From positions 1 through 7,114 of the IMG/VR virus record IMGVR_UViG_3300019374_000122: a stretch of 7,114 nt of DNA; one strand, written 5' to 3'. Made by a program: the position numbers and the translations under genes. Below are positions 1 through 7,114 of the stretch, piece after piece (the stretch's first letter is position 1; every line of letters starts with the position of its first letter). Below the pieces are notes generated by a model that was not told the origin of the DNA, did not search any database, and saw nothing but the letters and a program-made list of their open reading frames with translations. The DNA is from a virus (lineage: Duplodnaviria; Heunggongvirae; Uroviricota; Caudoviricetes).

Positions 1-140
1 CCCCACCCCACCACCAATGGCAACAGAAAGCGATTTAGGCCATCCGACATACTCAAGCGCGGATGCAAAGGGCAAAGTCAGAGCGCCACATAGCAAAATC
101 TCGAGCGTTTTTTGCTTCCACCCCCCACCACCGACAATAA
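1..140. repeat. Direct repeat copy 1 (about 96% identical to 322..461, offset 321 bp); holin 3'-region sequence
   Basis: Base-by-base alignment of 1-130 with 322-451 shows 5 mismatches; identity decays over 131-140. The 321-bp offset is a multiple of 3. Confidence 0.9.
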
Positions 141-243
141 CATCATAACCGTGGTTACGTGTCGGTTGTCGCCCGTTATCCGTTCCTTCTGACCATGCAA
201 CCATATCCAGGAAAGCTTTACGCTGGGAATTTAGTACCTGCAT
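1..243 (-). CDS. Endolysin (lambda R-type lytic transglycosylase) 5' portion, fused in-frame after codon ~39 to a diverged copy of the holin 3' region; ORF runs off the window at position 1
   Basis: ATG at 243..241, with AAGGAG at 250-255 six nt upstream and directly after the holin stop. Translation MQVLNSQRKAFLDMVAWSEGTDNGRQPTRNHGYDVIVGG closely matches the N-terminus of phage lambda R as I recall it (MVEINNQRKAFLDMLAWSEGTDNGRQKTRNHGYDVIVGG...). It then continues GGWKQKTLEILLCGALTLPFASALEYVGWPKSLSVAIGGGVG, which is holin sequence. No stop codon before the window edge. Confidence 0.6.
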   Translation of the reverse strand, partial: MQVLNSQRKAFLDMVAWSEGTDNGRQPTRNHGYDVIVGGGGWKQKTLEILLCGALTLPFASALEYVGWPKSLSVAIGGGVG

Positions 244-246
244 AAA

Positions 247-582
247 TTACTCCTTCGAGCTACCAAACTTGTTACCGATTACTCTCATTGCAGCCCCACG
301 AATAGCATCGACACCGATCAGCCCCACCCCACCACCAATGGCAACAGAAAGCGATTTAGGCCATCCGACATACTCAAGCGCGGATGCAAAGGTCAACGTC
401 AGAGCGCCACATAGCAAAATCTCGAGCGTTTTTCGCTTCCAGCCACCACCACCGCCAAAATAGGCGATGCGCAAACCAGCCATAACAATCGACATAATCA
501 CTGCGCCCAGCGGCGTATCTCCACGCCACCAGCTCTGAAACAACTCCAGCCAGTCCGGCCAAGTATTTGGGTTATGAGGCAT
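247..582 (-). CDS. Holin, phage lambda S family (class I, three predicted TM segments)
   Basis: Translation from ATG 582..580 (MPHNPNTWPDWLELFQSWWRGDTPLGAVIMSIVMAGLRIAYFGGGGGWKRK...GVDAIRGAAMRVIGNKFGSSKE) aligns in pattern with lambda S (…AMAYLRGRYNGGAFTKTV…IGTDSIGSLIKRFAAKKAG). It sits immediately upstream of, and is translationally linked to, the endolysin start. The track's longer ORF begins at an in-frame GTG at 678, inside the methyltransferase C-terminus, which I consider unlikely as the start. Confidence 0.8.
   Translation of the reverse strand: MPHNPNTWPDWLELFQSWWRGDTPLGAVIMSIVMAGLRIAYFGGGGGWKRKTLEILLCGALTLTFASALEYVGWPKSLSVAIGGGVGLIGVDAIRGAAMRVIGNKFGSSKE
322..461. repeat. Direct repeat copy 2, lying inside the intact holin gene
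   Basis: Same alignment as copy 1; this copy is embedded in the complete holin ORF. Confidence 0.9.
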
Positions 583-658
583 TTCGTCATCTCTCACCTC
601 GCGATATTTGCGGGTGCTGTGTTGGAAATAAAAAGGCCACGCAACGTGGCCACCAGAA

Positions 659-1710
659 TTATTTCCCCACCAGTTCACTTACCTCTTTCACCGTCTGATT
701 AAATCGCTCTGACTCAAGTTCAACACCTAACGCCCGACGCCCCAGCGCCATTGCCGCTTTTATTGTGGAACCGGATCCCATAAGAAATCAGCAACCAGAT
801 CGCCTTGTCGACTACTGGCACTGATTATTTGCCGGAGCATATCCGCAGGCTTCTCACACGGATGTTTACCCGGGTAGAACTGAACGGGTTTATGCGTCCA
901 GACGTCGGTATAAGGCACGGAAACTGATACGGAGAAATAGCGCCGGAGAGTTTTAAACTCATCCAGCAATTCAGAATATTTGCGATTCAGTGAATCATAA
1001 GATGCCACCAGCTGGTGGTGTGGTTGTTCCAGTTGTTGTTCCTGAAATTTCTCTGCCGCTATACGGGAAAACAGTGCCTGCAACTTCCGGTAGTCAGCCT
1101 CATTCGGCAACTGCCACTGACTGGCACCAAACCAGTGGGAAACCATATTTTTCTTACCTGTGGCTTCGGCAATTTGTTTTGCCGTTATACCCAGTTCGGC
1201 ACGAGCATCCCTGAAATACGATATCAGCGGTGCCATTATGTGCTGTTTGAGTTCCCTTTCTTTTGCCGCATAGCCGTCACTTTTGCCGCGATATGGCCCC
1301 TGGTAATGTTCAGCAAACAGAACGCGCTCTGTGGCAGGAAAATATGCGCGCAGACTTTCTTTATTACACCCATTCCAACGTCCGGACGGCTTCGCCCAGA
1401 TGATATGGTTAAGCACGTTGAAACGTTCACGCATCATGATCTCAATATCAGATGCCAGGCGATGCCCACAGAACAGGTAAAGGCTTCCGGCAGGTTTCAA
1501 CACCCGCCAGAACTGGGCCAGACAGTGGTCCAGCCACTTAAGGTAATCTTCGTCCCCTTTCCACTGATTGTCCCAGCCGTTGGGTTTCACCTTGAAGTAC
1601 GGCGGATCGGTAACAATCAGGTCAATGGAATCATCAGGCAGGGACTGAATAAAATGCAGGCAATCAGCGTTGATTAAATCAACACTGTTTATTTTTACAG
1701 TATTTTTCAT
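659..1710 (-). pseudogene. Beta-class DNA methyltransferase (N6-adenine/N4-cytosine, DPPY motif), disrupted by a 1-nt frameshift just before the C-terminal FxGxG AdoMet-binding motif
   Basis: The ORF 760..1710 carries IVTDPPYF near the N-terminus and ends ...DLVADFLWDPVPQ*. A different frame from ATG 781..779 reads MGSGSTIKAAMALGRRALGVELESERFNQTVKEVSELVGK*, with stop at 661..659, which is the canonical motif I and C-terminus. A single missing base around 782-790 would restore one continuous ORF. Confidence 0.75.
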
Positions 1711-1860
1711 GGATCAGTAAGCGTAACTCTGGTAGGCTCACTCTGCTTTTGCGCTAAAGCAGTGGGCCGTGGTTCGCTTGTGACCAGTAGGCATGAGCGA
1801 ATGGCTGGCAGGTGCTACCAACACCCACCAGCCGCCCATTTTCACAGCAGGAAACCGCCA

Positions 1861-2064
1861 TTACTGGCAGCGTCTGAATTTATTCCCGTACCCGCCGTTA
1901 TCCTTCGCCAGACCCGCCAGAACTAACTGAGTCAGTATTAACTGGCACCGGGCTTCGCTTACTCCGGTAGTTCTCGTCATCATGCGTGGCGTTACCCACT
2001 TGTCAGCAGGTAAGAAATGAAGGACTGCGGCGGCGGTTTCTGTCATATCTTGCTGTTTTAGCAT
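1861..2064 (-). CDS. Small hypothetical protein (67 aa), possibly DNA-binding; function unknown
   Basis: ATG at 2064..2062 is preceded by AAGGGA about 7 nt upstream on the minus strand. Translation: MLKQQDMTETAAAVLHFLPADKWVTPRMMTRTTGVSEARCQLILTQLVLAGLAKDNGGYGNKFRRCQ. The track ORF extends to a GTG at 2148 with no RBS. Confidence 0.4.
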   Translation of the reverse strand: MLKQQDMTETAAAVLHFLPADKWVTPRMMTRTTGVSEARCQLILTQLVLAGLAKDNGGYGNKFRRCQ

Positions 2065-2185
2065 GTTTTTTCCCTTCTGGTTAACATGACATACCAATAA
2101 CTCTTGTCTAAAAAGCCAGCAAGATAAAAAGCCAGTATTCACGACCACCAGCGTGTTTACTGTACTGCACCAGGTTTACAGGTAC

Positions 2186-2207
2186 AAAAAAACCGCTCAG
2201 CGGCGGG
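2186..2207 (-). terminator. Candidate intrinsic terminator for minus-strand transcription (short GC hairpin followed by U7)
   Basis: Minus-strand RNA reads cccgccgcugagcgg followed by uuuuuuu (plus-strand A7 at 2186-2192). The stem is only 4-5 bp, so this is weak. Confidence 0.3.
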
Positions 2208-2287
2208 TTTAAGTTGTGTGGCGAAGTAACCACTCTTAACAGATTACAATGTTTTTTGCGGACCGCGCTAATGATTTCCTCTTTTTT

Positions 2288-2317
2288 TTGTTGTATTTTT
2301 CACACGGTTGCTAAAAT
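2288..2317 (+). promoter_or_regulatory. Candidate sigma70 promoter for the plus-strand island (-35 TTGTTG, 18-nt spacer, -10 TAAAAT), preceded by a T-rich tract
   Basis: TTGTTG at 2288-2293 and TAAAAT at 2312-2317, with a T-rich UP-like tract at 2281-2300. The implied leader before ATG 2333 is very short, so the exact start site is uncertain. Confidence 0.35.
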
Positions 2318-2332
2318 TATTTCGGATCGATA

Positions 2333-3274
2333 ATGAGTACAGAAAATAAGAATAAAACTAGGCGAGTGAGAGTTGGTTTTTTCACTGGTAATGGAAGCAA
2401 AAAAGATGGCACATCTGCTGCAAAACTAGCCTTTGAGCAAATGACCACAGCAGATACTGTAACTTTTCCAATAACTTACACAACAGACACCCCAAATCGA
2501 GGGTTAAAGTTAGTTATTCTTCAAAAAGATACCACACTGCAATGTTACTTTGGTTACGTATCGTGGAGAAGGGAATGCCTACTACCGTTCATCGAGGATG
2601 CTACAGGTAGTGAGAGAACAATTCCTTTAAATGATAAAGATTCTGTAGTTGAAAGAACATATTTTATCTATTACTACGAAACGGATTTATTAGCTATGAC
2701 CCTCAACCATATAGGGCCCAAAGTAAATGATCTGGCATTCATTTTGTATAACAAAACTGATTTAAAAAGCGTCACTTTTGAAGCCATTTGGAAACAAGAG
2801 AGCATGAAGGAACTGCTTGAGGACGGAAATATCCTACGTAGTTTCGATCTTATAGTTGCTGCTCCAAGAAACTTTAACAAAGCTAATTATAAGATTAAAA
2901 ACCCTTTAGCTAATGAAATTATTGACATGGTTGTTGGTATGGGCGGGTCGCATCTAAGATTAAATATGCGAGGTCGGATTCGCCCGAAAAAACAAGGTTT
3001 TAACTATCTAAAAACTTCTGTCACCGATGCTATTAAGGAACTACTTGAACTTTTTCCAAAAGGTTCTGGAGGTCTAAAAATTAAAAAAATTGATGTAACA
3101 GAGCCATCCAATAGAACGCCCAAAAGTCTACTTGACCAAGTATTGGTCAGTACAAAGACAATCATTGTCAAAAGCGGTTATCCATCCGATTCTGATATCA
3201 GAACGGCGATGATATCTGCTAAAATTGATAACGCGAACTATCTTGCACAGTATGAGCTCGCTAGCAGAGACTAA
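2333..3274 (+). CDS. Hypothetical soluble protein (313 aa), first gene of the AT-rich island; candidate sensor component of a phage-exclusion/abortive-infection module
   Basis: Long uninterrupted ORF in an AT-rich segment (about 38% GC in a 100-nt hand count at 2333-2432, against about 48% at 4201-4300 in the flank). No Walker A, DPPY, HNH or other motif that I recognise. Its stop is 22 nt from the RBS-led start of the membrane-protein gene. Confidence 0.8.
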   Translation: MSTENKNKTRRVRVGFFTGNGSKKDGTSAAKLAFEQMTTADTVTFPITYTTDTPNRGLKLVILQKDTTLQCYFGYVSWRRECLLPFIEDATGSERTIPLNDKDSVVERTYFIYYYETDLLAMTLNHIGPKVNDLAFILYNKTDLKSVTFEAIWKQESMKELLEDGNILRSFDLIVAAPRNFNKANYKIKNPLANEIIDMVVGMGGSHLRLNMRGRIRPKKQGFNYLKTSVTDAIKELLELFPKGSGGLKIKKIDVTEPSNRTPKSLLDQVLVSTKTIIVKSGYPSDSDIRTAMISAKIDNANYLAQYELASRD

Positions 3275-3295
3275 TAACCAAGCATGGAGGACACA

Positions 3296-3745
3296 ATGAG
3301 AGAATTAGCCACTTTTCTCTGGAAATGCGTCCTCTGGATTCTGTTGACCTATGCAGCGACAAAACTGTTTAAACCGATGAAGCATGCTGACGTACTCACA
3401 ACAGCGGGGGTGCTCTCGACTATATCAGGCATCCTGTTTGGTTTTGTTCTGGCTGCAATATCTATATTTAGTAGTGCAAACAGCGATAAGGAAGGAGCAA
3501 TTAATGCCCTTAAGCAAAACAACGTGTTACCAACTCTGGTAAATCGATTACTTTCAACAGGGTTAACTCTCATCGTCGCATGTATATTTCCATTGATAGC
3601 GATGTTTCTACCAGATGATGTTATTGTTGCGGGCAAACCTATTGATTTCCTATTCATACTGTTAGGCTTATCCTCCCTTATAATTTCGCTATATACCTTC
3701 GGAAGGTGTTGGTTAGTGTTACGAAAAATCTTCCCCCACTTGTGA
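3296..3745 (+). CDS. Small integral membrane protein (~149 aa, four predicted TM helices); candidate effector of the island
   Basis: GGAGG at 3286-3290 lies 5 nt upstream of ATG 3296; an alternative ATG at 3284 has no RBS. Four hydrophobic stretches: LATFLWKCVLWILLTYAATKLF, VLTTAGVLSTISGILFGFVLAAISIF, LPTLVNRLLSTGLTLIVACIFPLIAMFL, PIDFLFILLGLSSLIISLYTFGRCWLVL. Confidence 0.8.
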   Translation: MRELATFLWKCVLWILLTYAATKLFKPMKHADVLTTAGVLSTISGILFGFVLAAISIFSSANSDKEGAINALKQNNVLPTLVNRLLSTGLTLIVACIFPLIAMFLPDDVIVAGKPIDFLFILLGLSSLIISLYTFGRCWLVLRKIFPHL

Positions 3746-3774
3746 CAGGTTGGCCTCATATGGGGCCAACCTGT
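3745..3774. terminator. Perfect 11-bp inverted repeat (acaggttggcc / ggccaacctgt) with 8-nt loop, between the convergent island and Q; likely bidirectional stem-loop terminator or insulator
   Basis: Left arm 3745-3755, right arm 3764-3774, loop tcatatgg. It overlaps the stop codon of the membrane-protein gene and lies 7 bp from the Q stop. There is no adjacent U-run on either strand. Confidence 0.5.
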
Positions 3775-3780
3775 GCAACC

Positions 3781-4149
3781 CTAAGCGTCCATTTCAAGGT
3801 TAACATCCAACATTGAAAGGCAACCATCAATAAATCCTTCGGCTAGTTGTATTTCTATGCGTACCAATTTTTCATCCTTTCCACGCACCTTTGCAATCTT
3901 ACGCTTGGATATTCTGTATAAATAATGTGCCACAAGCAGCGAGTGCTCATCTGGCTTTTTTTGCTTTAGACGAGCAAGACAACCTTCAATAATTAATGCA
4001 TCACTATCTGAACAAGCCTGACGTGTTTTGCTTGTGTAGGGAAGAAGCCCCTTAAACCCAGCAGCTATAGGCGAATAGTCTACTCCAGAACTATCACTCG
4101 CCGCCCATGCTCCCCAACGCTCCAGAACCATCTGAATATCACGCATCAA
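3781..4149 (-). CDS. Late-gene antitermination protein Q (phage 82/21 QuuD-like family)
   Basis: Translation MMRDIQMVLERWGAWAA... matches the N-terminal signature of QuuD-type Q proteins as I recall it (MRDIQMVLERWGAWAA...). GGAG lies 7 nt upstream of ATG 4149. Position upstream of the lysis genes fits. Confidence 0.85.
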   Translation of the reverse strand: MMRDIQMVLERWGAWAASDSSGVDYSPIAAGFKGLLPYTSKTRQACSDSDALIIEGCLARLKQKKPDEHSLLVAHYLYRISKRKIAKVRGKDEKLVRIEIQLAEGFIDGCLSMLDVNLEMDA

Positions 4150-4163
4150 CTTTCTCCACCAAA

Positions 4164-5159
4164 TCAGGCCAACACACCAATCGCCAGCGCGCGATCGATA
4201 AAACGAAATATCAGCTCCAGTTGGGAGCCATACTTCTCTTCAAATGCCACGGTATCCGCATGCAGCTCGTCGTGATGCTTTCTGCACAAAGGCAACACAA
4301 AGAGGTCATGCGCTTTTGTACCCATTCCACCCTGACCGTGACCTATCAGGTGGTGGGGATCATCAGCAGGCTTTCCACAACATGCACACGGCTGTGTCTT
4401 AACCCAGCGCGTGTACTTTTCATTAACCCAGCGGCGGCGTTTTGGGCGTAACATAAAAGACTCCGGCGACTCCGGATCCACTTTCAGCGCCAGCACCTTT
4501 TTCGCCTTATCCTGGATGATGCTGGTGGCAGGAACCGAAGGCACAAGGTCACTTTCCCGGGTGACAGACGGCACAACAGGCTTCGGTAATCTCAGTGCCT
4601 TACGGGCTGCACTTTCCGGTAAGGCATCTGCCAGATCATTACGAATCAGCCACCAGCACAGTTCCGGCATTGTCACAACGTGACTATCATCAAAACCGAG
4701 ATCCCGACGCACAACAGACAACACCCAGCGGGCACAGTTATCCGTTGCCATTGATTCCAGCCGTTCCGTGAACTGATCGCGAAGCTGGTTATCGCAGTGC
4801 CAGCACAGACGGATTGCGCCCGGCGCGTGTCGCATTGTGGTCATGTTCTCGCTGTGCCAGTCGGAATGAGGCCACTGGCAGCCTTTTTCACGAAGTAACC
4901 AGCTTTCAAGACATTCCACCCCACCAGCACGACGAATCACTGCCTCATTACGGAACACGGCCAGAACGGCAGGATCATCCGCCAGCGGTTGTGATGCCGC
5001 AGGAACGGCACCACTGGCGAAAGATGAATAACGCTCCGGCTCAGGCTCCAGCAGAACACGGCCCTGCATAAACAGGGGCATCAGCTCTGAACCTGGCCTG
5101 AACAATACGATCCCCATACGCGGGGCAATTTCAGGGGTCAGTAGTGCTCTCACGGTCAC
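4164..5159 (-). CDS. DUF968-like prophage protein with C-terminal Cys/His-rich (HNH-like) motif; start codon uncertain
   Basis: 331-aa ORF; C-terminus PCACCGKPADDPHHLIGHGQGGMGTKAHDLFVLPLCRKHHDELH. The track start is a GTG at 5159, one nt after the KilA-N stop, with no clear RBS; internal ATGs are alternative starts. Confidence 0.65.
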   Translation of the reverse strand: MTVRALLTPEIAPRMGIVLFRPGSELMPLFMQGRVLLEPEPERYSSFASGAVPAASQPLADDPAVLAVFRNEAVIRRAGGVECLESWLLREKGCQWPHSDWHSENMTTMRHAPGAIRLCWHCDNQLRDQFTERLESMATDNCARWVLSVVRRDLGFDDSHVVTMPELCWWLIRNDLADALPESAARKALRLPKPVVPSVTRESDLVPSVPATSIIQDKAKKVLALKVDPESPESFMLRPKRRRWVNEKYTRWVKTQPCACCGKPADDPHHLIGHGQGGMGTKAHDLFVLPLCRKHHDELHADTVAFEEKYGSQLELIFRFIDRALAIGVLA

Positions 5160-5160
5160 C

Positions 5161-5970
5161 TCAATGAACGGTATCGAGCAGCTTTAACAGCTCAGTGAAT
5201 CGGGATTCGAAGAAATGCGGCTGCGTCTCGCGCGGATTTGCAGGACTGGTGATGTTCTTGCCGAACATGCAGCCTTTCGCCGTCAGCGACCAGAATTTTT
5301 TGATGTTGTTAATCGCTGTACGGCTGTATCGTTCGCGCTGTTCGACGATCCCCAGCTTCGCCATCTGGTGATATGCCTGATTAGCCGTCAGGCGGATACC
5401 ATACTGCTTCAGCAGTGCACTCAGTGACAGCGTGGGGCGGCTTGAGCCATCAGGCGCGTCAGCAGGAACATCAATGGCATAACGCGGTGCCAGATTCGGT
5501 AAGCCAACAGCCTCCTGGAGTTTCTGACAGGCCCCAAGCACAGATGAGTTAGACAGATTTAACTCCCGGCGCATAAAGTCCAGCAGAATCACGCCAGCCT
5601 GCATCTTGTCAGCAGCCTGTCCGGATAACTTTTCCGGCGCGCTGGTTACCATATCGAAAGTACGGATCACCTTCAGATGGAATGACGGGCTGATCCACAT
5701 TGCATAGGCATACACCAGTTCCTTACAGACATACGTTCCCCGTTCATTTCCCCCATGAATCACACTAACTGGGTCAACACCCAAATTCTGGGTGTTGATT
5801 AATTCATGAACAAGATCAACAGTTTGTTGGCTGGAAAGAAACTTTCCTGGCTCCTTGGTTCTGGCATTTGCACCAGATGCTACTGCTGCGCGATGCAGAT
5901 CGTTCAGGCTGTAACGCTCATAAGCATCACGACGAACTTCAATACCATCAATGACCATCAGATTATTCAT
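5161..5970 (-). CDS. KilA-N domain protein (Roi/antirepressor-like DNA-binding protein)
   Basis: N-terminus MNNLMVIDGIEVRRDAYERYSLNDLHRAAVASG... fits the KilA-N pattern. ATG 5970 is preceded by GAGGGG about 8 nt upstream. Confidence 0.7.
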   Translation of the reverse strand: MNNLMVIDGIEVRRDAYERYSLNDLHRAAVASGANARTKEPGKFLSSQQTVDLVHELINTQNLGVDPVSVIHGGNERGTYVCKELVYAYAMWISPSFHLKVIRTFDMVTSAPEKLSGQAADKMQAGVILLDFMRRELNLSNSSVLGACQKLQEAVGLPNLAPRYAIDVPADAPDGSSRPTLSLSALLKQYGIRLTANQAYHQMAKLGIVEQRERYSRTAINNIKKFWSLTAKGCMFGKNITSPANPRETQPHFFESRFTELLKLLDTVH

Positions 5971-5989
5971 ACTTCGTTTCCCCTCTTAA

Positions 5990-6379
5990 TCAGGCAGCTG
6001 CACCCGCCGTTTTCTCGTACTTACTGATAGTGATCTCGACCTTCCCTTCCGGGATAACCGGTCCCCACTCCACCAGCATTCTTTTCACCTGACTGTCGTC
6101 TTCCCACACCCCCGCGTGGGTCAGGGCGTCAAACAGCGCCTTGTTATAGTTGTCCAGATCGCGGATCCTGTTATCCGGAGGAAACAACACGATCTCCACT
6201 GAAGCAGGTGCCGACGTTGGTTTCGGCAGACGACGTAACTGCTCAACTATTGCTGCGCACGCCGCGCTCTGGAATTTTCGCCCCGCCGCGCTTATCAGGC
6301 TCTTACCAGCAAACGCCCCTTTGTTGGGGTGTCGCCAGTACGTGTTCACGCTGGGCGGAAAAGGCAGGATCAGCTTCAT
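5990..6379 (-). CDS. rusA: Holliday junction resolvase RusA
   Basis: MKLILPFPPSVNTYWRH...RIRDLDNYNKALFDALTHAGVWEDDSQV matches the E. coli RusA pattern (PWPPSxNxYYRH...[28 protein letters not shown]), including the catalytic Asp cluster. Its start overlaps the upstream stop as ATGA. Confidence 0.9.
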   Translation of the reverse strand: MKLILPFPPSVNTYWRHPNKGAFAGKSLISAAGRKFQSAACAAIVEQLRRLPKPTSAPASVEIVLFPPDNRIRDLDNYNKALFDALTHAGVWEDDSQVKRMLVEWGPVIPEGKVEITISKYEKTAGAAA

Positions 6380-6702
6380 ACTTTCAGGCCCCTCTCATGT
6401 AACCAGTGGGTTGCACGCAGCCTTGCGTTTTCCTCACCGGCAAGCAGTGAGCGGATAATCCCGACCGCCTCGCTGTCGTCGTCCTTCACCGCGGTATGAA
6501 GCGTGATGCCCCGGGCCACGCCACGCTTTATCGTGATGACGCCTTTTTTCTCCAGTGCGCGAAGATGCTCCACCGCTGCATTCACTGAACGGTATCCCAG
6601 CATGGTTGCCACCTCCTGATTGGTTGGCGGGAAGCCACGTTCTTTCTGATAAGAAATCAGCATATCCAGCACCTGCTGCTGGCATTGAGTTAACGTCGTC
6701 AT
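6376..6702 (-). CDS. LexA N-terminal DNA-binding-domain homolog lacking the S24 peptidase domain (108 aa)
   Basis: From ATG 6702..6700: MTTLTQCQQQVLDMLISYQKERGFPPTNQEVATMLGYRSVNAAVEHLRALEKKGVITIKRGVARGITL aligns with E. coli LexA residues ~4-68 ([65 protein letters not shown]). No Ser/Lys protease domain follows. The start overlaps the upstream stop as TAATG. Confidence 0.8.
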   Translation of the reverse strand: MTTLTQCQQQVLDMLISYQKERGFPPTNQEVATMLGYRSVNAAVEHLRALEKKGVITIKRGVARGITLHTAVKDDDSEAVGIIRSLLAGEENARLRATHWLHERGLKV

Positions 6703-7052
6703 TAAGCCCCCACGTAATTCCCTGACAGATACCACTCATCACCCGATGCAGCGCGCTTGCTGCTTTTCCGTAAGCACCGCTCACGACGCGCAAGAAAATT
6801 GTTTCGCTCTTGCTGGGAGTGGCTTTCACGGAATGCCGCCATCCACACCGTTGCAGCACGACGGTATAAGCCCCTGGACTCCAGTTCTTCCGCCTGGCGG
6901 GTCAGGCACAAAATCTCCCGCGGGTCGTTAGTGCCGACATAGAAATTGCGCACAGGTCTGGTTTCACGAACTGGTTGCGGTTCCGCCTCCTGCGCTCTCT
7001 CAGTCAGGCGCGGGAAATGTCTGCGTGTATCCCCTTCACAACGGTGAGCCAC
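6702..7052 (-). CDS. PerC-family-like regulator domain; true start uncertain because the frame stays open to the window edge
   Basis: AEELESRGLYRRAATVWMAAF...ERNNFLARRERCL resembles the PerC/Pch pattern (AExLExxGxWRRAAxxW...RRxxCL). The track start is a GTG at 7052, and the same frame has no stop between 7053 and 7114. Confidence 0.55.
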   Translation of the reverse strand: MAHRCEGDTRRHFPRLTERAQEAEPQPVRETRPVRNFYVGTNDPREILCLTRQAEELESRGLYRRAATVWMAAFRESHSQQERNNFLARRERCLRKSSKRAASGDEWYLSGNYVGA

Positions 7053-7114
7053 ACGACCACTCTGACGTAACTTGCTTGCTGACTGCAGAACGCGCTGCCG
7101 TGAGTAACCTGCAA

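Follow-up and report, generated by a model that had tools for sequence, protein, structure and literature searches.

A holin-like tail on a truncated endolysin frame at the end of an E. coli prophage record, probably a sequencing or assembly chimera

The lysis region of the prophage fragment

The stretch of DNA analysed here, referred to as the window, is a 7,114-nt fragment of an E. coli prophage in which the genes at the lysis end all lie on the minus strand. Positions 126-7114 align, as the reverse complement, with the prophage of E. coli CFS3313 (NZ_CP026939.2) over 6,990 columns with no substitutions and a single 1-nt gap (99.99% identity), and the two are collinear from 7114 down to 126 only. 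Phage SfV is 96.6% identical across the 700-nt lysis region. According to its annotation, the CFS3313 prophage encodes, in order, a PerC-like protein, a LexA-like protein, RusA, a KilA-N protein, a DUF968 protein, and antiterminator Q, followed by two hypothetical genes on the opposite strand, one hypothetical gene on the strand of the lysis genes, and finally the methyltransferase, holin, endolysin (158 aa), Rz-type lysis protein, and terminase genes. This comparison identifies the window as an ordinary lambdoid late region, from Q to the lysis genes, of an SfV/mEp460-like E. coli prophage.

Along the minus strand near the end of the window, the order is the 3' end of the methyltransferase, a hairpin, the holin, AAGGAG, the holin stop, and the endolysin ATG. 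The order of methyltransferase, terminator, holin, and endolysin is identical in the lysis cassettes (S holin, R endolysin, Rz/Rz1) of SfV, mEp460, and CFS3313. The terminator-like hairpin, GGCCACG-TTG-CGTGGCC with a T run, lies between methyltransferase and holin at 635-651 (minus strand); the same element is annotated in phage SfV as a putative rho-independent terminator, and it is presumably read through under Q antitermination.

The resident gene at 247-582 (minus strand) encodes a class I, three-TMD-type holin of 111 aa that starts MPHNPNTW. It belongs to the lambda family by full-length profile matches above the curated cut-offs, scoring 95.6 bits against Pfam model PF05106 (E = 2.6e-27, cut-off 23.8) and 125.9 bits against NCBIfam model TIGR01594 (cut-off 55.05), and its product is identical to CFS3313 protein WP_001120502.1, annotated 'phage holin, lambda family'. 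A longer open reading frame, delimited mechanically, extends to a GTG at 678, with the hairpin at 635-651 falling inside it. The ATG at 582 is supported as the true holin start because so strong a hairpin sits within the longer frame. A Chi sequence, GCTGGTGG, lies within the holin gene at 526-533 (minus strand); the holin's copy of the microhomology described below is about 75 nt downstream of it, and the Chi site is probably incidental.

Direct reading of the sequence places a Shine-Dalgarno motif for the endolysin, AAGGAG, at 250-255, the holin stop TAA downstream of it at 247-249, and the endolysin ATG at 241-243, all on the minus strand. From this ATG, the 5' part of a lambda-R-type endolysin gene (codons 1-39; 126-243, minus strand), with Glu19 in WSEGT, is 100% identical to the CFS3313 endolysin gene. 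The original prediction had described just such an arrangement, a ribosome binding site and ATG after the holin stop and 39 lambda-R-like residues, and direct reading confirms it, WSEGT included. The intact CFS3313 homologue has no match among Pfam or NCBIfam profiles; its identity was set through lambda lysozyme, PDB entry 1AM7, which it matches with E = 6e-101.

Upstream of the hairpin, the methyltransferase gene (N6_N4_Mtase, PF01555; 659-1710, minus strand) is missing a T in a TTT run at about 783 (GATTTC-TTATGGG). The resulting frameshift splits it into a 316-aa ORF (760-1710) and a 40-aa remnant (659-781). None of the 5,426 complete E. coli genomes searched has this 1-nt deletion, the best match reaching 99.0%, and an exact look-up of the frameshifted product gave no match. 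The choice lies between a genuine private pseudogene and a further sequence error in this record; as a private lesion, the deletion could mean that the prophage is decaying in its source strain.

A truncated endolysin frame that continues as holin sequence

The frame opened by the ATG at 243 translates as MQVLNSQRKAFLDMVAWSEGTDNGRQPTRNHGYDVIVGG and then as GGWKQKTLEILLCGALTLPFASALEYVGWPKSLSVAIGGGVG, running off the end of the window. It matches a PHROG endolysin family over residues 2-41 and PHROG and Pfam holin families over residues 36-81. Where the endolysins of SfV, mEp460, and CFS3313 run on ...VIVGGELFTDYSDHP... to 158 aa, the endolysin of the window changes to holin sequence after GG, and the record then ends. 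A lambda R lytic transglycosylase has a complete catalytic domain of about 158 aa that includes Glu19 (1AM7 is annotated GH24/GH104); the window holds endolysin residues 1-39 only, with residues 40-158 replaced by holin-like sequence, and its gene falls outside that class. The terminal holin-like part is likewise incomplete, matching holin profile positions 38-84 only, with a score that passes in Pfam (38.4 bits) and stays below the cut-off in NCBIfam (46.4 against 55.05).

The holin-like part is one copy of a direct repeat, 1-137 and 322-458, with 96% identity and a spacing of 321 nt (107 codons), the sole long repeat in the 7,114-nt window. Its source, identified by direct-repeat detection, is the resident holin segment at 322-458 (minus strand), which covers the TMD2-TMD3 region. 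When the fusion was aligned with both the resident holin and the CFS3313 endolysin, it followed the endolysin to 126 and the holin from 133 onward. The overlap is an 8-nt microhomology, CGGTGGTG, at 126-133 (minus strand), common to the endolysin, where it encodes V-G-G, and to the poly-Gly tract of the holin, whose copy lies at 447-454 (minus strand) in the tract encoding GGGGG. These are the only two sites of CGGTGGTG in the window, against 0.2 expected by chance. The alignment and the repeat detection bear out the description given beforehand, of an in-frame switch after codon 39, at a GGTGGTG microhomology, to a holin copy of about 96% identity at an offset of 321. The join is in frame because both sites consist of GGT-GGT glycine codons in frame, with a period of three, and not because of selection.

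Beyond the microhomology, the terminal segment at 1-125 (minus strand) is a copy of holin positions 322-446 with five private substitutions and runs off the end of the window; the sixth mismatch of the 137-nt repeat, at 134, is a base native to the endolysin. Positions 1-71, the final 71 nt, copy 322-392 exactly. The odd length of this terminal repeat might reflect the k-mer size of an assembler, but it is compatible both with a real duplication and with a chimeric path and carries no weight here. The window terminus follows a second G-rich motif, GGTGGTGGGGTGGGG (15-1).

Searches for the junction in other sequences

Forty-seven complete genomes match the 700-nt region at 99% identity or more. 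In the best 30 complete genomes listed, 12 of them from this group of 47, a single holin is followed by a full-length endolysin gene, and the tail of the query aligns back onto that one holin. In the set of 5,426 complete E. coli genomes, there was no match to a 43-mer over the junction as observed, to a clean 40-mer without the substitutions, or to the reciprocal deletion junction. These BLAST negatives are not due to a low-complexity filter, since a native 40-mer from the holin, containing the same G-rich tract and run as a positive control, matched 591 genomes. We also considered the CGGTGGTG pair as a natural recombination hotspot, an idea rejected since the reciprocal deletion junction is without a match. 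Among GTDB representative genomes, JGI metagenomes, and IMG/VR, neither the exact junction 42-mer nor a degenerate, allele-tolerant junction pattern found a match; the degenerate pattern does match the window.

At the protein level, a word-seeded search of a collection of about 15 billion proteins gave no endolysin-holin fusion at high identity over the whole query among the best 120 of 1,832 matches. Fourteen of the listed matches were inspected and proved to be ordinary holins, partial endolysins, or frameshifted endolysins. Matches with full query coverage were considered as possible fusions; those inspected were frameshifted endolysins.

These searches bear on the proposal that the frame is a selected, functional fusion, that is, a new lysis regulator built from an endolysin N-terminus and holin TMD2-3 and maintained by the phage. 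The frame is intact across the join and has its own ribosome binding site. Lambda S105 without TMD1 reportedly keeps antiholin, though not holin, function (White et al. 2010, J Bacteriol 192:725, cited in PMC10865782), and the holin part of the fusion, if real, would likewise comprise TMD2, TMD3, and the C-terminal tail without TMD1. It differs from that construct in that its N-terminus is 39 endolysin residues, its product is incomplete, and it carries two amino acid changes, R>Q and T>P, the second of which places a proline in the equivalent of TMD2. The in-frame join, moreover, is what the period-3 GGT repeat at both sites would give, the genomes and metagenomes searched and the proteins listed contain no second example, and there is no conservation of the kind that indicates selection. 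We regard a selected fusion as the least probable of the readings considered, and highly improbable.

Source of the copied segment

A donor allele for the copied segment was sought in complete E. coli genomes, INPHARED phages, and IMG/VR, and none closer than the resident holin was present in any of the three. Across the 5,426 complete genomes, nothing matches positions 1-125 better than the resident allele, at 96.7%. Among 125 natural copies representing 46 alleles, drawn from phage records and IMG/VR loci, the nearest is again the resident allele, with five differences. The 129 related loci include none with a second holin 3' segment. Where natural alleles are polymorphic, the copy retains the resident state, for example T in ACGTTG, where the other eight reference alleles have C. 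The 23-mers that contain the variant bases have no match in IMG/VR, where the native 23-mer is found in at least 119 contigs. From these allele comparisons, the copy is assigned to the resident holin allele as its source.

The original prediction had offered recombination between two related prophages, which would have joined the endolysin to a holin from another prophage resident in the host genome and left the prophage defective in lysis. Such an event has a ready context, as this holin family is often found in several lambdoid prophages of one E. coli genome, at up to three or four places per genome, and a diverged copy is what it would be expected to leave. The alleles speak against it: the resident allele is the closest of the 46 natural ones, the complete genomes give at most 96.7%, and the copy keeps the resident polymorphic states throughout, departing from them only at five sites where the variant bases are rare or absent in nature and where the variant 23-mers are missing from IMG/VR. 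Recombination with a second prophage is accordingly very unlikely.

Five substitutions beside the junction

The copy departs from the resident holin at positions 124, 121, 113, 76, and 72. The total of five had been predicted correctly. The statement that three of them are non-synonymous did not survive codon comparison, by which two are non-synonymous (R>Q and T>P) and three synonymous. At 124, GGT becomes GGG, a synonymous change within the tract GGTGGTGGTGGC, and G is found there in none of the 125 natural copies. At 121, GGC becomes GGG, also synonymous, with G in five of the 125. The change at 113 is CGA to CAA (R>Q), with A in 0 of 125 copies, at a site that the pattern used to fetch the copies holds fixed. 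At 76, ACG becomes ACT, synonymous, with T in 2 of 125, and at 72, ACC becomes CCC (T>P), with C in none.

Relative to CFS3313, the window thus has 5 substitutions in these 125 nt and none in the other ~6,990 nt (Fisher p = 1.5e-9). None of the five is more than 54 nt from the junction (p = 0.015), and transversions make up four of them. Among the motifs at which Illumina reads are systematically miscalled, GGT>GGG is the strongest known, and GGC/GGT motifs that precede it have been linked to phasing problems (Meacham et al. 2011, PMC3295828). The window resembles those errors in having a GGT>GGG change in a run of GGT and GGC and in the confinement of its changes to a short stretch; it differs in its other changes (G>A, G>T, A>C), which lie outside the motif. 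Only one, arguably two, of the five substitutions match it. A blend with endolysin bases, as in a read from a mixed cluster, was also considered as a source of the odd bases and set aside, since only two of the five coincide with the endolysin, about the chance level.

The five substitutions look like base-call error and not like time-dependent divergence, because 5 in 125 nt stand against 0 in ~6,990 nt in the same window and against the same reference. The mismatches had been put forward beforehand as an argument against an artefact. The concentration of 5 in 125 nt against 0 in ~6,990, the four transversions among the five, the rarity or absence of all five bases in natural alleles, and the GGT>GGG motif point the opposite way.

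Technical and biological explanations

We infer that the terminal 125 nt are probably a chimeric, error-rich stretch that arose in sequencing or assembly, and not part of a real gene fusion. A private junction at the end of the record is combined with a local excess of error-type substitutions, and the position of the junction, at a short G-rich microhomology and at the record end, is like that of PCR or MDA template-switch chimeras. If the stretch is such a chimera, a normal lambda-R-type endolysin gene would follow a normal holin gene in the underlying genome, the source sequence across position 126 would run ...GTCGGTGGTGAACTGTTTACTGAT..., and the last 125 nt would not be genomic. Synthesis would have jumped from ...GTCGGTGGTG in the endolysin back to ...GGCGGTGGTG in the holin, 321 nt upstream, by template switching at the 8-nt G-rich microhomology in library amplification or through an equivalent artefact, and a chimeric path backed by a few low-quality reads would have survived as a contig end. 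A chimeric molecule must have existed, whether in vitro or in vivo, because an 8-nt microhomology cannot mislead a k-mer assembler. Since assemblers usually prune chimeric paths that rest on single reads, the survival of this one suggests either low coverage or real support.

The main rival explanation is a real, strain-private tandem duplication of 321 bp, a reading that the original prediction had also offered, or an in vivo template switch between the two CGGTGGTG sites. The product would be a holin, an R(1-39)::holin(TMD2-TMD3-tail) fusion, and an intact endolysin, in that order, and the substitutions would have come from error-prone synthesis during the event. Microhomology junctions are typical of RecA-independent illegitimate recombination, and the junction here is of that kind. 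The clustering of the substitutions beside it is in keeping with such an event, and the methyltransferase frameshift, at a distance of 650 nt, is a further private lesion. A true 321-bp tandem duplication would make a short-read assembly break at its first long exact repeat, within the second copy, and the window ends after the 71-nt repeat, exactly as such a duplication would have it. A recent tandem duplication, however, should leave copies that are identical or no more diverged than the flanking sequence, and the copies here are more diverged than that (Fisher p = 1.5e-9); five substitutions in 54 nt, with none in ~6,990 nt, would need a special mutagenic event, and one of the changes is a known sequencing-error motif. 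Nor do the collections searched contain the junction, mutated or clean, or the reciprocal deletion product, and none of the 129 related loci has a duplicated holin segment. A real duplication is therefore a possible but unlikely explanation. The fuller proposal, in which a duplication with a burst of five substitutions has created an extra endolysin(1-39)::holin(TMD2-TMD3) protein upstream of an intact endolysin, acting as an antiholin-type modulator of lysis timing, is more doubtful still.

The original prediction is partly supported: its description of the sequence is correct, and its biological readings fare poorly. Should the terminal stretch prove to be the artefact that we favour, contig ends in lambdoid lysis cassettes that carry G-rich tracts of glycine codons can mimic a plausible in-frame fusion, and pseudogene or fusion calls at such ends need a read check before annotation. 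Should it prove real, it would amount to a structural variant, in one strain, of a very well-known lysis cassette and not to a new kind of system; its modest value would lie in offering a natural fragment of antiholin-like character and a case of mutation associated with a breakpoint.

Other observations

On a Logan contig from SRR34940167 (L010:2946-3206), a holin variant of 86 aa (P0003, from a cluster of 59 members) has the C-terminus ...AIGGGVGWG*. Its frameshift falls in the GGTGGTGGGGTGGGG tract, the one at which the window stops, and an intact 158-aa endolysin comes next. Because P0003 is frameshifted there, the G-rich GGTGGTGGGGTGGGG tract appears to be indel-prone, either biologically or technically. 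Dozens of singleton, variously frameshifted lambda R endolysins, P0090, P0100, P0091, and P0076 among them, are present on ENA contigs of about 3.5 kb. They look like products of error-rich assemblies of lambda DNA and not natural variants.

Between antiterminator Q and the methyltransferase, on the opposite strand, the window carries an AT-rich cassette of two genes, at 2333-3274 and 3284-3745 (plus strand), with a GC content of 37-43% against about 51-56% in the flanks. The first gene encodes a 313-aa protein (phrog_7651) and the second a 153-aa protein (phrog_8552) with sub-threshold matches to membrane families only; neither protein has a significant match in Pfam or PADLOC. The position of the cassette is that of the stx genes in Stx phages. 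The cassette looks like a moron and is perhaps a candidate for a role in defence or exclusion.
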